DNA of 64,000 nt. Origin: a phage. Under the pieces are notes generated by a model. That model did no database searches, was not told the origin of the DNA, and saw nothing but the letters and a program-made list of their open reading frames with translations. The translations under genes were made by a program, and so were the position numbers. Where the stretch lies: the sequence record PZ000613.1; one strand, given 5' to 3'. Shown here in pieces: positions 1,754 through 55,761 of the stretch. Within the stretch, counting starts at the first letter, position 1; each line of letters starts with the position of its first letter.

Positions 1754-4700
1754 TCATTTAGCAGCTAGCTGCTTTTCCAACTCTTCTACTTTAGCAGACA
1801 AAAGCTTGATAGCAGCAAGGGCATCTAGTAAAAGCGGGTTAGTGTCAAGAGTCATGACTCCACTTTTTTCTGCACTGTGAACATACTGAGGGTCCACCTG
1901 TTCTGCTTGTTGTGCAATAACCCCTCTACGTGGTGATTTCTTCTCATCGTTCTTATAAGTAAAGTTTTTAAACTCAAGAGATTTAATATTACTTAGAGCG
2001 ACATTTAGATCTAAATCATCTCCAATGTCCTTAACGTTTGCGTCAGAGGTTCCAGCATTCTGAAGAGTTGTCCACGGAAGATTGGATTTGAGTTCTTTTG
2101 GGTTGTTGTTCAAGGTGTTAGATCTGATATAAGCCGACCCACTCAGACTTACCCAAAATTGACAGATTCTATTTACAGCATAGGAAGTTTGTATACCCCC
2201 TCCATTAGCAGCTGCCCACGAAGAGTTACCATCCGAGTCGGTTATGAATTGGTTATAGTTAGAATCAGGTAATACTGTACCACCCTGAACCCCAACACCA
2301 TAATCATCTTTCACCAAAACACGACCCCTAGGAGTCTCTATATTACCAGCCTCAGTGAAATCAAAAGTAGTTCCTTTACTTGATGTTTTGTTGTAAACAC
2401 CAATTCTAGCAGAGTAAGAGCTTCCTATCGTCCCAACCATTCGGAACTCGGCTGAACCTTCAGATTCTACTCCTACTTTATACTCAGATACCACATTACC
2501 GCCGGTTACAGGGGTTCCATCAGAAGGGCGAGTGCCGTCGCTATTGATTACTGACCATGTTGTGTTGGCAGCAATGAATGCACCCTTAGCACGAATGACC
2601 CAAACACCTACAAAGTTATCAGGACGGACTCTTGAAGAACGACCATAAGCAGGGTTGTTTATTGATGCGTTAAGGGACAAGTTGCTTGAACGATTACCAC
2701 CTACATCACCTTCTGTGATTTTTGGTGGGTTCTTAGTTTCACCACTTGGTTGTAAGGCTGATTTACTAATAGACCCACCTACATACGCAAAAGCACCACC
2801 CACTGAAACAAAGTCAATAGTGCCTGTTATATTGGGGGCACCATTCTCAAAGACATCGCCGTTAGAGCCACTATTACCACCATCACCTCTGCCATAGAGT
2901 TCATTGATAGAGCCAGACTGAACACCGTTCCTATCAGGAACACGGAAAGTTGTTGTTCCATTACCTGTAGAGTATCTCCCCCTTTTGGATGGAGAGGCCA
3001 ACCAATCTGAATCAGATATCGGTGTTAATAACTGTGCATAAGCCCACAGGTCTGGATAATCAGCACGGTTGAGAAGCTGTCCGTCTGATGTTACATCATT
3101 TGGGTGAATAAAAGCCCGGCTATCCGCTAGTCTGAAATCACCAATGTTGAAATTGGAGATACCATTCATTGTAGGACCACCACCGCCACCACCTTGGTTT
3201 CTTAATTGACGTAAGGTAACGGCATCATAGTCACCAACAGCATCTGCTACAGTAACCGGCTGCTGGAAGGTAACCTTTTGAGTGAAAGTCTTAATATCAG
3301 AGTTCACACCATTAACATCGATACCAGCTGCGCCAACATCAACATTCGTGGGTTTATTATCCTCTGTATAAAATTTATAGTCCCCTCCCGGCTTAGAGAA
3401 GATCGGTGTTTCGGAAGAAGCTACTACAGTTCTAGCTAAGTGATCCCCAAATACAGAAGAATCAGAGCCGCTTCTTGATACCATGTTAACTTGAGTGTCA
3501 TTATCTTTTATTCTGCGTAAAGCTATAGTTTTGTTAAGGACTAAGTTTCCATCCATGATACCACCGGATTTAGCCAAAGCCCCTATGTTTGCAGCTGTTA
3601 TGTTAACGTTTCCTGTGATATCATTAGGGGAGATTCCGTTAACAGTAACAATATAAGGTTTCTGGTCTATTGGTTTACCATCATAAGAAGTATCTCCAGT
3701 TAAGCTAGGAGATCTAATAGCTTCACCACCAGTCCAATCAGGAAGACGGATGTTGATGTAGTTGGTAGAGTCTGCATCAGTCAGCCCATCAGCCAGTTTA
3801 CCCCAAGAATAATACTGCTTAGCGCCTGCTTGCCATTCTGTTTCAGACACAACTGGAAGTTGACCGCTAACCAAAGAAGCACCTAAATCACTAGCCAAAT
3901 CCTTGGACACCAAACGACCGTCAGCAGGTAAGATCCCCGGATAGGAAATAGGGCGAGTTGGGTCATAAGGGAACATTAACAGCTCACCAAGATATAAGGA
4001 TGGGTTACCTGTAGGGATTGTGATATCAATATTGCCACTAGAGTCAGGAATACGAGAGTTAACAGTAACAACCCGAGGTTCAGTTTTACTCAAATCAAGA
4101 ATCTTATCGGCAGCCACTTTGTAGAAAACATACTGAGTGTTTTCCCACACTAAAACAGTTTCTCCTGCCTGACGATTAACAGCATCTGCGTCCGCTTCAG
4201 CTTTAGAGCTGTATGTTTTAATAAAACCATCAACTTTGTTATCAACAACTTCTTTACTATAAGAAGCTACGTTCTCTACATTACTCAGCCCAACAGTGCT
4301 TTTGTCAAGAGTTAAAGAAACCTCACCACTCTCAGCAGGACCGCCGTTTACAGAGATAGAACGAACAGATGGGATAAGGTTTGCAATATTCTCTAAAGAT
4401 GTTTTGTGAACAGTGTTGTCATCTTTATCAACATAGAAACCTACATCACCAAGAACAGGAACGCCAGTTGGTGCGTTATCTAAATCTGTTACTGTACCAT
4501 CTTTACCCGGAGCACCTTGAGGGATACCCAAAGAGATAACACCAGTATTAGGATCAAAATGCCCAGAAGCTTCATTTCCCGGAGGAAGTGTGGTGACGTC
4601 TACTGACATACCTAACAGGATATCCAGTCGTTCCTGAACCTCAATCAACTTCTGGTCCATAAGAGCCAGAGCGTTCTGTGCGTCAGAGACTGCTGCGTTA

Positions 4701-8798: not shown

Positions 8799-11042
8799 TT
8801 AGTTTTTACTTCCAAGACGTTTGCCTGGAATCCGTGAATCTTTGAGAGAAGCTTGTTGCTCTTTCTTAGTTACATTAGCCTCTTTCTTTTGGAGTTCCAA
8901 AGTTTTATCCTGAACACGAGTTTGCTGAACAATCTTCTCTTGGTCTACTTGATGAGACATAACCATCTGCAATTCTTTCAGTACAGATTCATACTGACGG
9001 ACCTGCTGTTGCATAAGAGCTAACTTGTGCTTAGCTTGTTCCAGAGTAGCATTGTTATCTTCTTTACGGTTTTCCAGAGTCATTGCATCTGCTGCATTTT
9101 CTTGCTTGAACTGCAACTCTTCCTGACGCAGACTTAATTCATCCGCAGCTTTCTGCTGTTCGAATGTAGTACGTTCACGTTGGTCGAATGCATCAGCAAT
9201 CATCTTCTGAGAAGAAGCCTGTACGTTCTCAACCTGTGCTTTAGTCATCTCAAGCTGGAGGATTTCCATCGGAGACGGCTCAGGAGGCTGATACTGTTCC
9301 AGAGGCAGAAGGTATTTATGAGTATCTTTAATACCCATCAACTCAAAGATCTGTGCAGTCATGTAACGGTCTTGCTCCAAACCAAAGAGAGGTGCTAACT
9401 GTGCATCTGCTGCAATCAACTGTTTCAAGCTAATCAATTTCTGTGCACGTTCTGCTTTCTCATTAGGAGAGATAGCTACAACAACTTGAAGATTGTGGCG
9501 AGCTGGCAATTGTTTCGGATTTACCTGAATCATACCACGAGGGGTTTGTACCTCGATAGGAACTTCACCATTTTCTCTGATAAGATTGTAAATACCACGC
9601 ATCAATTCAACCATACCGTTGTGAGCAATGTTACGACATACCATACGGAGACGGTTCTGTGCAGCATTCATCATCAAGCCTACAGTTGCATAAGCGTTAT
9701 CATTCTTAAACACATCAGGGTTGATACCCATGCCAAGTTTAGTTACACCTGTACGAGTCTCTTTAAGCTCCTCAGACATACCTAGGAGGCCGTCAATACC
9801 TTGAGGTAGGTTATGGTATGGGAACAGGTCAATAGCATCCTGACGCTCCATTTCAACCACTCCACCGGGACGGTTATCAAGCAGAGAGCGACGATCGTAT
9901 GCACCAACAAGAGCTTTGTATCGACCATAGTTAGCATTGTTGACGTTATCAATATAACCACGAACTAACGCGGTACGTAAATCTTGAATATCTTTCGTAA
10001 TGTCATAGACGGATTGACCATAGAAGGAACCCGGAATTGGATACGGGCAGAAGGTTACAAACGGAATGTGAGTTACTTCTTCAGTGTGAAGGATATGCTC
10101 ACCAGCTTGAATAACCTGATAGAGTTTAGACTCTTTATTCTTATCTAGAACACCAGTACGAATGTAGTGCTCATAAACCCAAACCATAGAAGCAATGTCT
10201 TCGGTATCTGTACCAATATCAGCATCAATATCCTGACGCCAGTCAGTACGAGACCAAGCAACTGTAGATTGAGTAGTATCCATCGTGTCTGTCCAGTCGT
10301 TGAATGCTTCAATCTCGTCTTTAGGGAAGCCCATAGCAACCAGATCTTCTTTAGAACGACGTACACGATGACAGAAATATTGTGCATCTGCAAAAGAGGT
10401 AGCATGTTCATCAACAAAGATTTGCTCTGAAGGAACATATTCAACTTTCACACGTTTAACAGTTTGTTCATAAGTGACTTTAACATCCACTGTACCGTCT
10501 TCATTTTCTTCAGTGAAGATTTCCAGATTCTTGAGTCCACCAGCTTCTAATCCCTGAACATATGCAGCCAATGCTTCCGGTGGTACACCTTCAGCCTCTT
10601 CAGTTTGAGTAGAAGTTTGCTCATCCCAATAGTATTTGATAAAAGAGTTACGAGTAACCAGACATTCTTGTGCAGCAGAAGAGATAATATTGTATCCCGG
10701 ATTATCACGCAGAAGAATTTGGTTAACTAACTTAGTTGCTACATCAGCAGCATCAGAATCCTGTTGGTTGTCAGCTACGAAAGTAACTGCTTCATCACCA
10801 GAACAGAATACGTTAATAATATCTTGCAATGTACCGTTAACAGATTCCCAAACAGTACGATCTACCCAACTAGAGCTGCCAGCAGTTACTGGTGCAGGTA
10901 AGTTACCATAGAAATATTCCCAAGCTTCACGAGCATAGCCCTTAACAGCCATGTCCACGTATCCTTGAGCGTAATTAAAACGACGTTGAAGGTCAACACG
11001 TAACTCGTCCAACACCTCTTCACTATATTTTTGCTTAGCCAT
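8799..11042 (-). CDS. portal protein (747 aa)
   Basis: Large ORF immediately downstream of the large terminase and upstream of scaffold/capsid; size and order typical of portal. Confidence 0.6.
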   Translation of the reverse strand: MAKQKYSEEVLDELRVDLQRRFNYAQGYVDMAVKGYAREAWEYFYGNLPAPVTAGSSSWVDRTVWESVNGTLQDIINVFCSGDEAVTFVADNQQDSDAADVATKLVNQILLRDNPGYNIISSAAQECLVTRNSFIKYYWDEQTSTQTEEAEGVPPEALAAYVQGLEAGGLKNLEIFTEENEDGTVDVKVTYEQTVKRVKVEYVPSEQIFVDEHATSFADAQYFCHRVRRSKEDLVAMGFPKDEIEAFNDWTDTMDTTQSTVAWSRTDWRQDIDADIGTDTEDIASMVWVYEHYIRTGVLDKNKESKLYQVIQAGEHILHTEEVTHIPFVTFCPYPIPGSFYGQSVYDITKDIQDLRTALVRGYIDNVNNANYGRYKALVGAYDRRSLLDNRPGGVVEMERQDAIDLFPYHNLPQGIDGLLGMSEELKETRTGVTKLGMGINPDVFKNDNAYATVGLMMNAAQNRLRMVCRNIAHNGMVELMRGIYNLIRENGEVPIEVQTPRGMIQVNPKQLPARHNLQVVVAISPNEKAERAQKLISLKQLIAADAQLAPLFGLEQDRYMTAQIFELMGIKDTHKYLLPLEQYQPPEPSPMEILQLEMTKAQVENVQASSQKMIADAFDQRERTTFEQQKAADELSLRQEELQFKQENAADAMTLENRKEDNNATLEQAKHKLALMQQQVRQYESVLKELQMVMSHQVDQEKIVQQTRVQDKTLELQKKEANVTKKEQQASLKDSRIPGKRLGSKN

Positions 11043-11102: not shown

Positions 11103-12644
11103 TTAGTAGCTCTGATTCCATCTGCTTACGTTTGCCTCATACAGAGAAGCACTTCCGTAGCTAACGTCATGCTTAGAGCGACCACGATGTGTAACAGAGC
11201 ACGCTGAATAGCGCATTGCATCCATTAAGTCATCATGTTCTTTAATAATCTTACCAACCTTACGGTGATATCTAGCTTTCTCTTCGAATAGCTTAGCGTT
11301 AGCGGCTGTGTTAAAGACTTTAAAGCGTCCACTCATCATTCTTTCTCGGATATCTGTGATTCCGGGTTCTACAAAGAAGTTCTTTTTACCATCCATTCCA
11401 ATTTTGTTGTAGAAGGTCTCACTCTGCACATTAACTCCTGCATTCTTATAGAATTGAGCAACAGATGAGCCACTGCCTTTCTCAATATTGTCCGCATCAT
11501 GCGGTAGGATGACAGGAATCCACTGACCACGACCATTAATAGCTGGAGCATGATACACTGGAGTAAAGCCACCTTCTTTATATGAGTCGTAAACATAGAT
11601 AGTATCCGTGTTTGCATCGTAAGCTGTCCAAACAGCAGCAGTTGGGTGATCAATACCAATATCAATTGCACAGACACGTTTCCACGTATCAGGAATTTCG
11701 AATGGTTCACATTTAATTGTGTCATCCGATACATCATATATCAAACCACTTCCTAACAATGGCATACCTTTCGAACGCATCTCTAATTGCCACGCTGGAA
11801 TACCTTCAGTCATATCTTTTATATCTTGGTCAGTGATATGTCCACCTAGGTCTGCATGAGCATCCCACCAAGAGGCATTCTGGAAATATAGAGAACCTGT
11901 GTTCTCATCCCCTTCACCTTTCATAAATTTATCTACCAGTTCAGTTAAACCGTTCTCTGGTGTAGCTGTAATTGTAACTAGACCTTTAGTTGTGAGTGTA
12001 CGTGTGACGCACTGTGCGAATATAGCCATAGACTCGTATGGATCTTCTTCGTCTAACCAAATGTAGTCAACTGTTGCACCCATCAATGTGTGTTCACCCT
12101 GTTGGGTTGAACGGAATTCTAATGTACTTAAACCGTCAAACTCTCCTCTTTCATTTTGATGTTTGATTTGTACGATTTGAAGTTTGTTACCATCTCGCTC
12201 TATCGTGTCAATGACGATAGCATCACGAGGAATGACACCTGTCCCTAATAAATTTGTATCCTTTCCGATAGGTGTACCAAACAATTCCTTTTGCAATACT
12301 TTCCTTGTGGAATCCCCTGTAATACCAACTGCCCATGCTAAGATAGGTCTTTTAAATTTATATCCTGTCCACCAAGTTGGGTAGCGACCTGTGACATGAC
12401 AAGCAAACTCGTATGCCTCGCTGTAAGATTTACCAACACGGTTCGCTGCACACAAGAATCTAAAGCGATGCTTCAATCCTGCTGCATAAAATTTCTTTTG
12501 GAAGTCATACGCCTTGAAAGACAAAATCCTATTATACTTCCTCCATTGGTCACGCTCTTTCAACATATTCAATAGTGCTTTCTTTTCCTCTACACTAAGA
12601 TTGTTACCAGTTAGAGCTTCATAAATTTGTTTATCTAATGACAT
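11103..12644 (-). CDS. terminase large subunit (513 aa)
   Basis: ATPase P-loop-like segment (ANRVGKS), Walker-B-like IWLDEED, and RNase-H-like nuclease motif (AIDIGIDHPTAAVW) in the C-terminal half. Confidence 0.8.
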   Translation of the reverse strand: MSLDKQIYEALTGNNLSVEEKKALLNMLKERDQWRKYNRILSFKAYDFQKKFYAAGLKHRFRFLCAANRVGKSYSEAYEFACHVTGRYPTWWTGYKFKRPILAWAVGITGDSTRKVLQKELFGTPIGKDTNLLGTGVIPRDAIVIDTIERDGNKLQIVQIKHQNERGEFDGLSTLEFRSTQQGEHTLMGATVDYIWLDEEDPYESMAIFAQCVTRTLTTKGLVTITATPENGLTELVDKFMKGEGDENTGSLYFQNASWWDAHADLGGHITDQDIKDMTEGIPAWQLEMRSKGMPLLGSGLIYDVSDDTIKCEPFEIPDTWKRVCAIDIGIDHPTAAVWTAYDANTDTIYVYDSYKEGGFTPVYHAPAINGRGQWIPVILPHDADNIEKGSGSSVAQFYKNAGVNVQSETFYNKIGMDGKKNFFVEPGITDIRERMMSGRFKVFNTAANAKLFEEKARYHRKVGKIIKEHDDLMDAMRYSACSVTHRGRSKHDVSYGSASLYEANVSRWNQSY

Positions 12645-12760: not shown

Positions 12761-13234
12761 TTAACTCTCGTCCGCTTCCTCCCCCTTTTCAGCGTCCTCA
12801 GAGTTGTCTTCTTCTGGAGGCATAACGTCGATACCAAGTGCTCCAGTCAAGAAGTCCTTGATTTGTGCATTCAATGATTCTTCGTTGATTACATTCTCTT
12901 CCTCAATCTTAACTTCAACAGAGGCCGCCTTAGGATATACCAGATCTGCAACTTTTGATGCAGCCTTGAATCTAAGATCAGGTGGAATATTAGGATCTTC
13001 GTAAATTTGAATTAACACTTCATCAGGAGACAAATGACTTGCAGCAACACGGTCCAACATTAATTGTGTCAGTTTACCTCTACTACCTTTGGGTCGTCCG
13101 AATTTATTTCCCTTTTGAAACTTCCCATTGCTTGGGTTCATACCACGGCTTTCGAGTTCTTCCGTTACTCCGGGTAATCTTCCTGTAACCTCAGCTACCT
13201 GTGCAGGCGTGAGTTCTCCGTTTTCTCCAAACAT
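12761..13234 (-). CDS. putative terminase small subunit / DNA-binding protein (157 aa)
   Basis: Directly upstream of the large terminase; N-terminal GNKFGRPKGS motif common in small terminases, acidic C-terminal tail. Confidence 0.45.
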   Translation of the reverse strand: MFGENGELTPAQVAEVTGRLPGVTEELESRGMNPSNGKFQKGNKFGRPKGSRGKLTQLMLDRVAASHLSPDEVLIQIYEDPNIPPDLRFKAASKVADLVYPKAASVEVKIEEENVINEESLNAQIKDFLTGALGIDVMPPEEDNSEDAEKGEEADES

Positions 13235-13290: not shown

Positions 13291-13860
13291 TTACTTACAA
13301 TCACCAACGGACAGGTTGAACATCTTACCTAGAGCAATCGTCTCACCTTCCCACGGAAGTTCTGCACCCTTCTCTTCCTCTAAAAGAATAGAGCCGTCGA
13401 CCAAAAATTTTTCGTAGTCTCGCAGTGCGTCGTCTACTAACTCACTCTTGTGAATCCACGTAATTGTTTCTGTACCATCCTCTTCGATTCGAACATCACG
13501 ATGCCATTCATCTTTGGAGGTAATGTAATCATGGAGCATTTCATATTCAGCTTCTTCAATCATCTCAATCATTGCACGAGCATAGTCAGGGAGGTGATCA
13601 TGTTTAGTAGATTCGTATTCAACTACTTCCAGAGTAGATGGTGCTGATTTAGTTTTAGAATTAGGGCGAGTAGTATGAATCAAATCTAACATGTTTTTGT
13701 TCTCCGTAATATTTGGTTTAAGAATACTTCCACTATATAGATCTTGTACAGCCAGTCCTGAAACATTTCCCATAGTCTCTAAATGCTGTAAGCTACAACC
13801 AGAGCGACACAGCTGTGAATTGTATTCGTTAAGGTCCATCGCTTTGATTAAATTATTCAT
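13291..13860 (-). CDS. hypothetical protein (189 aa)
   Basis: ORF with RBS in the late (minus-strand) block; no motif recognised. Confidence 0.4.
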   Translation of the reverse strand: MNNLIKAMDLNEYNSQLCRSGCSLQHLETMGNVSGLAVQDLYSGSILKPNITENKNMLDLIHTTRPNSKTKSAPSTLEVVEYESTKHDHLPDYARAMIEMIEEAEYEMLHDYITSKDEWHRDVRIEEDGTETITWIHKSELVDDALRDYEKFLVDGSILLEEEKGAELPWEGETIALGKMFNLSVGDCK

Positions 13861-14158
13861 CTGTCTCTCCCTTGCTGTAGTCTTTGTATGTTTCTACTTT
13901 GTAAGTGCGGAATGCTCTGAAGAAGAGCCAACCTAAGCTACTCACATCAATTGTAATATCGAAATCTGTTTCATCATCTAAGTCAACAAGTCGACCTAGG
14001 CATGTAGCTTCCATCCCTTCTTCAGAGTCACTGTTGACCACGAAAGCGTATGTCTCCGTTCTGAACCGAGGCACAATCTCTGATAAAAAGTCTAATACTA
14101 AATTCATAATTCTTCTCCTCTGAATAAGAGTATAAAGGGCTAGGCATATCGTCATCAA
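13853..14158 (-). CDS. hypothetical protein (101 aa)
   Basis: ORF overlapping the start of the downstream gene by 8 nt; no motif recognised. Confidence 0.35.
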   Translation of the reverse strand: MMTICLALYTLIQRRRIMNLVLDFLSEIVPRFRTETYAFVVNSDSEEGMEATCLGRLVDLDDETDFDITIDVSSLGWLFFRAFRTYKVETYKDYSKGETDE

Positions 14159-14347
14159 AGATGACTATCCAACCCGTAAAGGCCTCCTCATACCAACAAC
14201 CCGTGATCGCTGAAGTAAAGGGGACTTCATGTTAAGGCACCCTCACGTTAAGGCCATGTCATTAGTCATACTTGATACATCTTGCTATAGAGAAGCAGAT
14301 GAATAAACAGAAGACTATTACTAACCAAAAGATTATTTCCATTAAGG

Positions 14348-14635
14348 CTACCCCATCTCCCGTAAAGCTTTAGTTAGCATTAATACTAAAGAGACTGCTT
14401 CTACCCGTTCATCGTCTGGAAGAGAGGGATTTGATACTTTCTTTAAATTGTTTTCTATTGCAATCTCAATGAACTTTTTAGTGTCCAGATTCATACTCAT
14501 CCTTATATATAAGAGTTTAAAATTCTGATTTGACCGAATGGGGCTAGCCGCTCCGCGACGAATTCCTAAAAAGGGGGAGTCCTCATTTAAAAAAGGGTTA
14601 TTCAGGATGCCTTTAAGCCCATTCCCACGTTCCAA
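14348..14635 (-). CDS. hypothetical protein (95 aa)
   Basis: First minus-strand ORF after the divergent control region. Confidence 0.35.
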   Translation of the reverse strand: MERGNGLKGILNNPFLNEDSPFLGIRRGAASPIRSNQNFKLLYIRMSMNLDTKKFIEIAIENNLKKVSNPSLPDDERVEAVSLVLMLTKALREMG

Positions 14636-14640
14636 CCTTT

Positions 14641-15088
14641 CCCCGTGCCTACTCCCCGTAATTATTTCCCCGTGTATACCATCCTATTCATTAACTACCC
14701 GTTAAATTAGTTCCCCTTTAGAGAGTGAGAGAAAGGCCAGCACTGTACAGGCACTACCATAACAGGTCTAATAATACCCATAAGCAATAGCCCACATCCC
14801 CCATAGTTTGAATGTAAATAGTTTCAATAGTTGTTATTATGAGTGCAATAATGATATATGTATTAATTAAGTGGAAAGATTATGTTTGATGTTTATTATA
14901 TTCTTTTTATTCTTTTCTTTTTCAGCGTTCTTTTATTCTTTTTCTTTTAACGTTTGATGCTTGAGTAATGCTATTAATAGTTAACTAATTATTTAAGTGG
15001 TATATTATTACCGCACTATCTGGCTATGTTTCCCCGTGGTCTGTTCTGCGGTTGTGTGTTCCCCGTTTGTCCTGGTATGTTGGTCTGC
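14641..15088. repeat. array of seven (T)CCCCGT / CCCGT(A/T) repeats in the divergent control region
   Basis: Copies at about 14641, 14654, 14668, 14698, 15024, 15054, 15082; the first three are 13-14 bp apart, the last three 28-30 bp apart. Confidence 0.5.
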
Positions 15089-15212
15089 TACCCGTAGGAT
15101 TAGTGTTATAAAGTAACAATATCCAGTAAGCTGATGCTCTGAGTATGGGAAGTTTAGTAAATTAAATTTCTTTAGTTTTCAGTAAGATGCAAGAAAGTTA
15201 GAAAATAAATGG

Positions 15213-15240
15213 TTGACAGTCTTTTCCTTTATTATATAGT
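15213..15240 (+). promoter_or_regulatory. sigma70-type promoter TTGACA-16-TATAGT
   Basis: Consensus -35 hexamer, 16-nt spacer, TATAGT -10, AT-rich upstream; about 40 nt before the first plus-strand gene. Confidence 0.55.
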
Positions 15241-15278
15241 CGGTGACAGTTGATTGAATTTATATAAGGGATAAAGAA

Positions 15279-15770
15279 ATGACTAAAACGATGCAGATAG
15301 TTAATCTGGCAAGTTATGCAATCGTTGCAGCGATCGGTGTTAGTGCACTGGTAACATCTTTTTCTGATAAGGCTATCGCTGGCCCTACTCCTACAACTGA
15401 TGCGGCTAGTGTCTTTATTAGTTCCATCAATAAGGGTTGGCTGATTTGTAACGGTGCAGATAGTGACACCAATAAGATCGTTTTAAAGGTTAAATTCAGC
15501 AACGTTTCCCGTGATGGTCTGGTCGTTAGTACCAAAACACTAGATAATCAGTCTAACAGTGATCTAGTTCTCAAGCGCACCGATAATGATGCGGATATGG
15601 TTACATTTGGCACTGTACAACGTTACAACCATGCGAAAGCTGTTACAAATCTGGTTAGTTATGGTCCGGTTAATGAGTCGATGATCGCCACCACGGTTTA
15701 CAATAACGCTGATAACGCTGTTTATACTGTTCACGTTAATTTAGCCAACTGTATTAAGGCTAGTAAATAA
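15279..15770 (+). CDS. secreted/periplasmic protein with N-terminal signal peptide (163 aa)
   Basis: RBS plus hydrophobic N-terminus (IVNLASYAIVAAIGVSALVTSFS); first gene of the plus-strand block. Confidence 0.5.
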   Translation: MTKTMQIVNLASYAIVAAIGVSALVTSFSDKAIAGPTPTTDAASVFISSINKGWLICNGADSDTNKIVLKVKFSNVSRDGLVVSTKTLDNQSNSDLVLKRTDNDADMVTFGTVQRYNHAKAVTNLVSYGPVNESMIATTVYNNADNAVYTVHVNLANCIKASK

Positions 15771-55345: not shown

Positions 55346-55761
55346 CTTATATCCTTTACTTTTTAGCTTTCTTAGGAATAATCTTTTTATCTATTATTCT
55401 TGAATTTGGTTTAAGTAAGTTAGTTAATTATTTAGGTAATAAGTAATTAATATTCTTTTAAATAGAGAATCAAAGTCCCTAGGAGTCCCTACAACCTAAA
55501 TCAAGGATTCCTTAATTCTCTATTTTTATCTCGCAGGTGGCTCCTGCCCTTCGGTACTTGCAAGGGATTCTGTGAATTGCCCAATATACAAGCCTGCAAT
55601 AACTTTATCAGCTATACAATATATACATTACTAGTGTGTTATATCTACTACCAAAGATACTTATATTATATAGTACTCTTATCGGTATAAGCGTAATGTA
55701 TACTATACATAACCGCTCAAAGAGAGCAACAATCTTTCAAATTAAATAAGGAAATTAAAAT

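Follow-up and report, generated by a model that had tools for sequence, protein, structure and literature searches.

A co-oriented, periodic array of short MCCCRT sites at the concatemer junction of a phiEco32-like phage genome

The phage DNA analysed here, a stretch of 64,000 nucleotides from sequence record PZ000613.1 (the window), carries between its leftward and rightward gene blocks an array of short repeats with the consensus MCCCRT (M, A or C; R, G or A). We find that this array is real, strand-specific, tied to the direct terminal repeat (DTR) of the genome, conserved and co-varying across relatives, and periodic. The initial annotation had recorded seven CCCCGT-like repeats in a "divergent control region" and had offered iterated binding sites for a regulator, a replication origin, a partition-like site or packaging-related sequence as explanations. 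The phrase "divergent control region" is correct as a description of the map, but the sole strong sigma-70 promoter (15213–15240) lies outside the array and, judged by homology to phages with known ends, the region is the genome terminus, that is, the junction between successive genomes in a concatemer. Of the explanations offered, iterated binding sites and packaging-related sequence fit best, but the terminus itself had been missed. In our judgement the chances are about even that a phage protein, probably terminase, uses the repeats as iterated sites by which the junction is marked out for packaging and for cutting of the DTR. That a protein binds the sites, which protein this is and what role it has in packaging or maturation are points that we infer from the sequence.

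The array and the direct terminal repeat

The junction region matches 97 phage records, nearly all of them from Escherichia/Shigella phages of the phiEco32 group (Kuravirus, Gordonclarkvirinae). Several of these matches stop at record ends, and the end of the YF01 record is annotated "direct terminal repeat". The DTRs of phiEco32, SU10, Paul and YF01 have been determined experimentally (PMC4281155, PMC9965538), that of SU10, with blunt ends, being confirmed by read drop-off (PMC4281155) and that of YF01 by full-length nanopore reads (PMC9965538). The window holds one DTR copy only, which is homologous to the 193-bp repeat of phiEco32 and Kuravirus over its full length and has the same boundaries; by this homology, the limits 14546 and 14738 would be the physical ends of the present phage. 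Because the DTR aligns at 14546–14738, inside the record, we take the window to come from a phiEco32-like podophage (Kuravirus) whose assembly is circularly permuted. The order across the junction is late-end unique DNA below 14546, the collapsed DTR, and early-end unique DNA above 14738. This position of the DTR places four motif copies inside the repeat and leaves the other clusters flanking it. The features of the junction are listed below, with a slash marking each boundary within a sequence.

14546–14738, no strand: single collapsed copy of the 193-bp DTR and core of the concatemer junction, by end-to-end alignment with both terminal copies of phiEco32 (NC_010324) and YF01 (OQ025076)
14542–14549, no strand: outer DTR boundary, the centre of the palindrome GGCT/AGCC; the right ends of phiEco32 and YF01 map to 14545/14546
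14735–14741, no strand: inner DTR boundary, GGCC/AGC, from the alignment; GGCT/AGC in phiEco32, Bas87 and Bas89
14565–14597, plus strand: most conserved DTR block, CCTAAAAAGGGGGAGTCCTCATTTAAAAAAGGG, with the repeat CCCTTTTTTA-10 nt-CCCTTTTTTA; 90–100% identity even where the DTR of relatives is otherwise dissimilar
14172–14408, plus strand: late-end (left) cluster, by pattern search, with ACCCGT at 14172, 14199 and 14403, TCCCGT at 14358 and CCCCAT at 14351
14641–14702, plus strand: DTR cluster, by pattern search, with CCCCGT at 14641, 14654 and 14668, ACCCGT at 14697 and a degenerate CCCCTT at 14713
15032–15095, plus strand: early-end (right) cluster, by pattern search, with CCCCGT at 15032 and 15061 and ACCCGT at 15090, at 29-bp spacing

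Both DTR limits are centred on GCT/AGC (14545/6 and 14738/9). The inner boundary has the same half-palindrome as the outer one, where the exact sequence GGCTAGC has its single occurrence in the 64 kb, and this arrangement suggests a symmetric blunt terminase cut at both boundaries. The CCCTTTTTTA internal repeat has also been reported for the SU10 DTR (PMC4281155), and the block that contains it is a probable core module for terminase cutting or recognition. A box, TAAAAAGGGG(G/A)AGT, is kept in PKM.Lu.22.1 and Aeromonas phage LAh_8 (loci L043 4360–4490; L044 4900–5030), with a cut-site-like sequence about 20 bp from it that reads GGCT/AGC in PKM.Lu.22.1 and is a looser match in LAh_8. Its conservation in these two phages indicates that the box is the most ancient element of the junction. 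The record of another relative, PAS59 (OQ921332), carries a 275-bp terminal repeat_region (L008 1366–1640; L042 1–275) that starts within the equivalent of the phiEco32-type DTR and extends into the AT-rich core on its early side; this repeat may have arisen by overlap in the assembly and not represent the true ends.

All seven repeat sites of the initial annotation are present in the window, the last three of them (given as 15024, 15054 and 15082) having been placed 7–9 bp too low. Further co-oriented copies lie beyond the annotated span, at 14172, 14199, 14358 and 14403, and CCCAT variants are found at 14351, 14776 and 14799. Plus-strand MCCCRT copies total about 13 within 14172–15095, a span of ~0.9 kb centred on the DTR, mostly as TCCCCGT or TACCCGT with the consensus YT-M-CCC-R-T, against at most one copy on the opposite strand of the region, where about 1.6 are expected (plus 13, minus 1); no shuffle equalled this. 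The three copies of the early-end cluster lie 294–357 bp into the early end, and the four or five copies of the late-end cluster, which is partly non-coding and partly antisense to a small open reading frame (ORF) at 14348–14497, lie 140–375 bp into the late end. A second repeat family, GT(A/T)AAGGnnnnnTCAY, occupies the non-coding late end at 14176–14262, with four copies, three of them at an exact 16-bp spacing; these copies are interleaved with the MCCCRT copies, and phiEco32 has similar (C/A)ATAAAGGCC units.

Over-representation of CCCCGT, which the initial annotation had proposed as a test of the array, gave a divided result: the motif is not enriched window-wide (10 copies on both strands versus 9.5 expected), but its clustering and strand bias are extreme. 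Among 300 dinucleotide-preserving shuffles of the whole window, none reached the observed clustering of CCCCGT (5 copies in 450 bp; shuffle maximum 3), CCCGT (11 copies in 950 bp; shuffle maximum 5) or YT[CA]CCCGT (8 copies in 700 bp; shuffle maximum 2). Local shuffles of 14100–15300 likewise never reached the observed count of any of the three patterns (0/1000 for each), and none of the three has a minus-strand copy in 14000–15500. The 7-mer most enriched in 14546–15100 is TCCCCGT, all five copies of which in the 64 kb fall inside this interval.

The array is also periodic. Within clusters, the spacings fit a period of 14.5 bp, with a mean resultant length (R) of 0.67 across all genomes and 0.78 for three divergent representatives. 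The observed fit was equalled by none of 500 random placements, and R at 10.5 bp was only 0.17. As 14.5 bp is not a multiple of the helical repeat, such a lattice suits DNA that is wrapped on, or coated by, an oligomer. The arrangement of the clusters is that of the joined genome: they surround the DTR only when genomes are linked head to tail, and in concatemers all three are contiguous and co-oriented and bracket both DTR cut sites. Together, the symmetry that exists only in the concatemer, the co-orientation and the bracketed cut sites point to a function on the concatemer.

Conservation and co-variation among relatives

The junction was taken from 14 further genomes, and the sites were placed relative to a conserved anchor, AAAAAGGGGGAGTCCTC, that lies at position 14568 of the window. 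All 13 genomes that cover the whole region have 11–15 plus-strand MCCCRT copies, against about 2 expected, and 0–1 on the minus strand; in each of the 13, none of 500 shuffles reached the observed count. The same three clusters are present in every one of them. The motif-bearing part of the DTR is only 50–65% identical between clades, and its copy number is nevertheless kept: four positions of the DTR cluster are identical in seven Kuravirus-type genomes, and the clade with the motif ACCCAT has 3–5 DTR copies. Bas89 also has four DTR copies, at shifted positions (+52, +83, +111 and +141 versus +73, +86, +100 and +129). In relatives covering the region, the right cluster has 2–4 copies at 27–30 bp spacing, which read ACCCAT or ACCCGT in the other clade, and the left cluster, at −616 to −154 relative to the anchor, has 3–6 copies in one orientation despite differing surrounding genes.

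The motif itself differs between the clades, being CCCCGT or ACCCGT in the Kuravirus clade and ACCCAT, with a few ACCCGT, in the Suseptimavirus-like clade (TH42, TH43, Bas87, Bas88, 101114BS3, PAS59 and EK010). The variant switches in the left, DTR and right clusters together, and this concerted change argues for one common reader of all three. Combined with the turnover of copies under maintenance of the array and with the lattice, it indicates selection on the sites themselves.

Among more distant podophages, LAh_8 has seven co-oriented CCC[GA]T copies at +120 to +452 from its homologous box and none on the other strand; LAh_8 and PKM.Lu.22.1 each have a large terminase about 62% identical. 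A search of IMG/VR for relatives gave three loci by the DTR pattern and 18 by the large terminase, few of them informative. In one environmental relative (L032; large terminase 44% identical), repeats are dense and ORFs few at 3340–3830, about 2 kb upstream of the terminase gene. This stretch holds a tandem run of five 14-bp ACCGCGACAAATCG units together with several copies of GGTCAAGG, which differ from the present motif, and it may be an analogous junction with different motifs.

Candidate roles of the array

The genes and elements that bear on the function of the array are as follows.

11103–12644, minus strand: large terminase subunit, 99% identical to phiEco32 TerL
12761–13234, minus strand: probable small terminase subunit, 157 amino acids, candidate array-binding protein, identified by family profile and encoded immediately upstream of the large terminase
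14760–15000, plus strand: AT-rich core, 26% GC versus 42% for the window, by composition
15213–15240, plus strand: strong sigma-70-type early promoter, TTGACA-16-TATAGT, with 11/12 matches and conserved in relatives

The ORF map agrees with the gene arrangement given in the initial annotation, with structural genes leftward and early genes rightward of the array. Below 14500, the large terminase, the adjoining ORF 8799–11042 (portal by position) and small ORFs run leftward, and early-type ORFs run rightward from 15279, so that the junction separates the terminase/structural module from the early genes, which is also the order in phiEco32. The large terminase has its nearest counterparts in the Bruynoghevirus and P22 types rather than in T7. 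The family profile of the 157-residue protein matches the solved small terminases 7JOQ (E 0.0017) and PaP3 6W7T (E 0.11). Weak matches to DUF5681 are found in 24 of the 25 members of the family, with no Pfam match above threshold. A structural model of the protein has a confident helical core (predicted local distance difference test score 84–92 over residues 50–100), and a fold search with this model was not significant, with the PaP3 small terminase among its top matches only at E ~2. The weak DUF5681 matches and the profile matches to the NV1 and PaP3 small terminases support the label of small terminase for this gene in Kuravirus genomes, most of which have it annotated as hypothetical.

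In the packaging mechanism that we favour, a phage-encoded oligomeric DNA-binding protein would load on the ~14.5-bp site lattice, and our first candidate for this loader is the probable small terminase of the PaP3/NV1 type, whose gene lies 1.3 kb away. Once assembled, the directional nucleoprotein complex would mark the junction, would position the large terminase at the two cut sites (14545/6 and 14738/9), generating the DTR, and would set the direction of packaging.

Several points weigh against this mechanism. The deepest conservation is that of the TAAAAAGGGGGAGT box beside the cut site, not that of the array, and recognition may rest primarily on the box, to which the array would then be only an accessory. 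PKM.Lu.22.1 keeps the box without a clean MCCCRT array, and LUZ24, which has a related terminase and a DTR, is without a clean co-oriented array. The AT-rich block between two of the clusters would also fit an origin. To our knowledge, the function of the CCTAAAG repeats at the junction of phage T7 is still unproven, and the analogy with T7 that we draw below therefore carries architecture, not function. Finally, the probable small terminase is 92–93% identical (residues 1–140) between the CCCCGT and ACCCAT clades, and between GRPKGS and the variable C-terminal tail only one K-to-R substitution separates it from its EK010 counterpart (P0020). Because it is nearly unchanged between the clades, the small terminase does not obviously explain the G/A switch of the motif. 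Either this protein accepts G as well as A at position R, the clades having drifted in concert, or the reader of the sites is a different protein. The large terminase, too, is 92–93% identical across motif types.

Comparison of three other proteins with motif type pointed to none of them as the reader. The gp4-like protein does not track motif type, the Bas89 copy being 66–70% identical to those of the ACCCAT clade versus 55% to that of the window. The first early protein tracks motif type, but its N-terminus is signal-peptide-like by eye. In NJ01, Bas89 and Bas87, a 53-residue Zn-ribbon-like gene beside the DTR agrees with motif type, but the window has no such gene. The first late-side gene beside the DTR is a variable cassette (14348–14497 in the window, with equivalents in L013, L015, L018 and L021): the window has an unrelated 49-residue ORF at this place, Bas91 a 70-residue ORF, and NJ01, Bas89 and Bas87 a CxxH...CxxC Zn-ribbon-like protein of 53–63 residues. 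Further into the late side, a 189-residue protein (13291–13860, minus strand) carries the name "ABC transporter" in PHROGs and in annotations of phiEco32-type phages, without Pfam support, and this label looks like annotation carry-over. The protein is 48–58% identical between motif clades versus 92–93% for the terminase subunits.

The AT-rich core and its T-tract repeats, both described in the initial annotation, were located in the window. The core contains a conserved T-tract block (14891–14948) with TTATTCTTTT at 14907 and 14933, ATTCTTTT at 14900, 14909 and 14935, and six T-runs of 4–5 bases each between 14904 and 14948; the two clades share the sequence TTATTCTTTTCTTTTTCAGCG of the core. 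The core may act as bent DNA, as an upstream promoter element or as an unwinding element. An unwinding element, possibly primed by transcription from nearby promoters in the manner of the T7 secondary origins phiOL and phiOR, is what the core would be if the array served a replication origin or end-replication element, with the MCCCRT copies acting as iterons for a phage initiation or helicase-loading protein. We regard this as a live alternative, though a rather unlikely one. The repeats do flank the conserved AT-rich block, which lies between the DTR and right clusters, and direct repeats beside such a block are also a feature of the iterons of plasmid and phage origins. Typical iterons, however, are 17–22 bp long and the present sites 6–8 bp; nor do the sites simply flank the AT-rich block, since they reach the late-gene end and run through the DTR, so that the array spans coding sequence as well as the terminal repeat. 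The annotated T7 promoters phiOL and phiOR, which act as secondary origins, flank the analogous repeat arrays of that phage. The cumulative GC-skew minimum of the window falls at 14–15 kb, but it does not discriminate between the readings because it coincides with the switch in gene orientation. No convincing DnaA boxes were seen (the best were 6–7/9 matches by eye), and an origin leaves the three-cluster symmetry around the DTR unexplained. The eight ORFs flanking the array gave no ParA/ParB-like, initiator-like or other Pfam match, so an origin would have no initiator-like gene adjacent to it, and the partition-like site suggested in the initial annotation likewise finds no ParA/ParB-type gene among these ORFs.

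It is improbable, in our view, that the sites are operators through which a phage regulator controls the early promoter at 15213–15240 or leftward late transcription. The right cluster lies 120–180 bp upstream of this strong promoter, which stands upstream of the first early ORF (15279–15770), and nowhere else does a large non-coding stretch lie between divergent gene blocks. No copy overlaps the promoter hexamers, however, and at least eight copies are 500–1000 bp away, inside the DTR and the late-gene end. Strict co-orientation and a 14.5-bp lattice over ~0.9 kb would also be unusual for operators. In SU10, a single promoter precedes the first early gene, and the promoter motif of the phage gp36 is tAATGTATAtA (PMC4281155). 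The MCCCRT motif was rejected as a promoter element in its own right, as it matches neither the sigma-70 hexamers nor this gp36 motif. Matches to the gp36-type TAATGTATA are at chance level window-wide. Four matches of the TAATGTATA type fall within 100 bp, on both strands, at 55613–55712, in the kilobase of lowest GC (34.6%); this group of matches is probably a divergent middle or late promoter region. Between the right cluster and the early promoter lies a palindrome, TGTTATAAAGTAACA, at 15104–15118; it is found in both clades, with one base changed in 101114BS3, and may be an operator.

Each mature end of the linear virion DNA would carry the DTR cluster and one flanking cluster (7–9 copies), and the larger repeat group of T7 lies in the first few hundred bp of its early-gene end, the end that enters the cell first. 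A role at the genome ends, in ejection control or in end protection by a bound protein, would draw on both points, but it seems to us a shade more improbable than operators. The sites are direct, not inverted, at the two ends, so that they have opposite polarity when read from each end, and a single end should enter first, yet both carry similar arrays.

An extended −10-like element, TGGTATATT, lies at 14998–15006, just upstream of the right cluster, and is TGGTAATTT or TGGTAATTA in the other clade; a simple promoter scan made no call there. The position of this conserved TGnTAWWTT element would allow the right cluster to lie in a small RNA or 5′ leader that starts from it. We rejected a structured RNA as very improbable: there was no Rfam match at E up to 1, the fold of 15010–15135 was no better than that of shuffles (z = −0.56), the covariation term of the alignment fold was positive with compensatory change in 1 of 22 pairs, and the DTR and left clusters would be unexplained. 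A non-functional remnant of local duplications, for which Tandem Repeats Finder offers a weak 15-bp tandem signal in 15030–15067, is just as hard to credit, since copy number, strand and lattice are kept where the flanking sequence is only 50–65% identical and all three clusters, though separate, switch motif variant together.

Comparison with known systems

For the Kuravirus DTR, the literature gives the length, blunt ends, the CCCTTTTTTA internal repeat and conservation over positions 130–170 of the repeat (PMC4281155, PMC9965538). The accessible part of this literature makes no mention of the CCCCGT/ACGGGG array, the flanking clusters or the lattice; the original phiEco32 papers (Savalia 2008, Pavlova 2012) are outside that scope, and a prior mention there is possible. 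In practical terms, the locus shows where the true genome ends lie in Kuravirus assemblies that are circularly permuted, and it marks non-coding sequence to keep when Kuravirus phages are engineered. It also makes concrete, testable predictions: about 13 sites of one polarity on a 14.5-bp lattice, with two GCT/AGC cut sites.

Packaging sites with several short elements are familiar from phage lambda, whose cosB has R sites with a bend induced by IHF (integration host factor), and from SPP1, with its pacL and pacR boxes. As in the present junction, several short sites flank the cut site, an intrinsically bendable A/T tract lies between groups of sites, and a small-terminase gene, a probable one in the present phage, is near. 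These systems differ in making cohesive ends or headful cuts, whereas the present phage has a duplicated exact terminal repeat, and their sites are fewer (2–4) and longer; the present sites are putative binding sites.

The closest likeness is to T7, whose junction we rebuilt from NC_001604. Its CCTAAAG repeat occurs in 13 copies on one strand and none on the other, of which the 160-bp terminal repeat contains three, while two precede it on the left and eight follow on the right, and the copies fit a lattice of ~13.25 bp (1/500 null placements). These T7 repeats were reportedly described as SRL and SRR by Dunn and Studier in 1983. In both phages, a short motif of 6–7 bp recurs in one orientation in at least ten copies, inside the terminal repeat and in both unique flanks. 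In both, the lattice is non-helical (13.25 versus 14.5 bp, with a minimum spacing of 13–14 bp), the motif appears in the 5′ to 3′ direction on the strand that leads inward from the early-gene end, and the early promoters lie just beyond the array. The differences are as clear. CCTAAAG is unrelated to MCCCRT, and the phage family and the type of small terminase are unrelated as well. Most T7 copies lie outside the terminal repeat on the early side, whereas the present copies are more evenly split, and T7 relies on an RNA polymerase of its own that pauses at the junction (PMC3276506). The present array is thus an analogue of the short-repeat array at the T7 junction, not a homologue.

A conserved, co-varying candidate recognition array is now at hand in a second, unrelated phage group, Kuravirus, which is under development for therapy. 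A broader conjecture, to which we give only limited credence, is that unrelated phages with exact (DTR) ends have converged on a one-way lattice of short sites across the junction, CCTAAAG at 13 bp in T7 and MCCCRT at 14.5 bp in Kuravirus and its relatives, along which an oligomeric packaging protein would polymerise or wrap the DNA to measure and duplicate the terminal repeat. If this were so, the array, and not the cut-site sequence alone, would define the place and direction in which DTR genomes are cut, and the MCCCRT array would offer a tractable second system for the long-unclear maturation of T7-type genomes.

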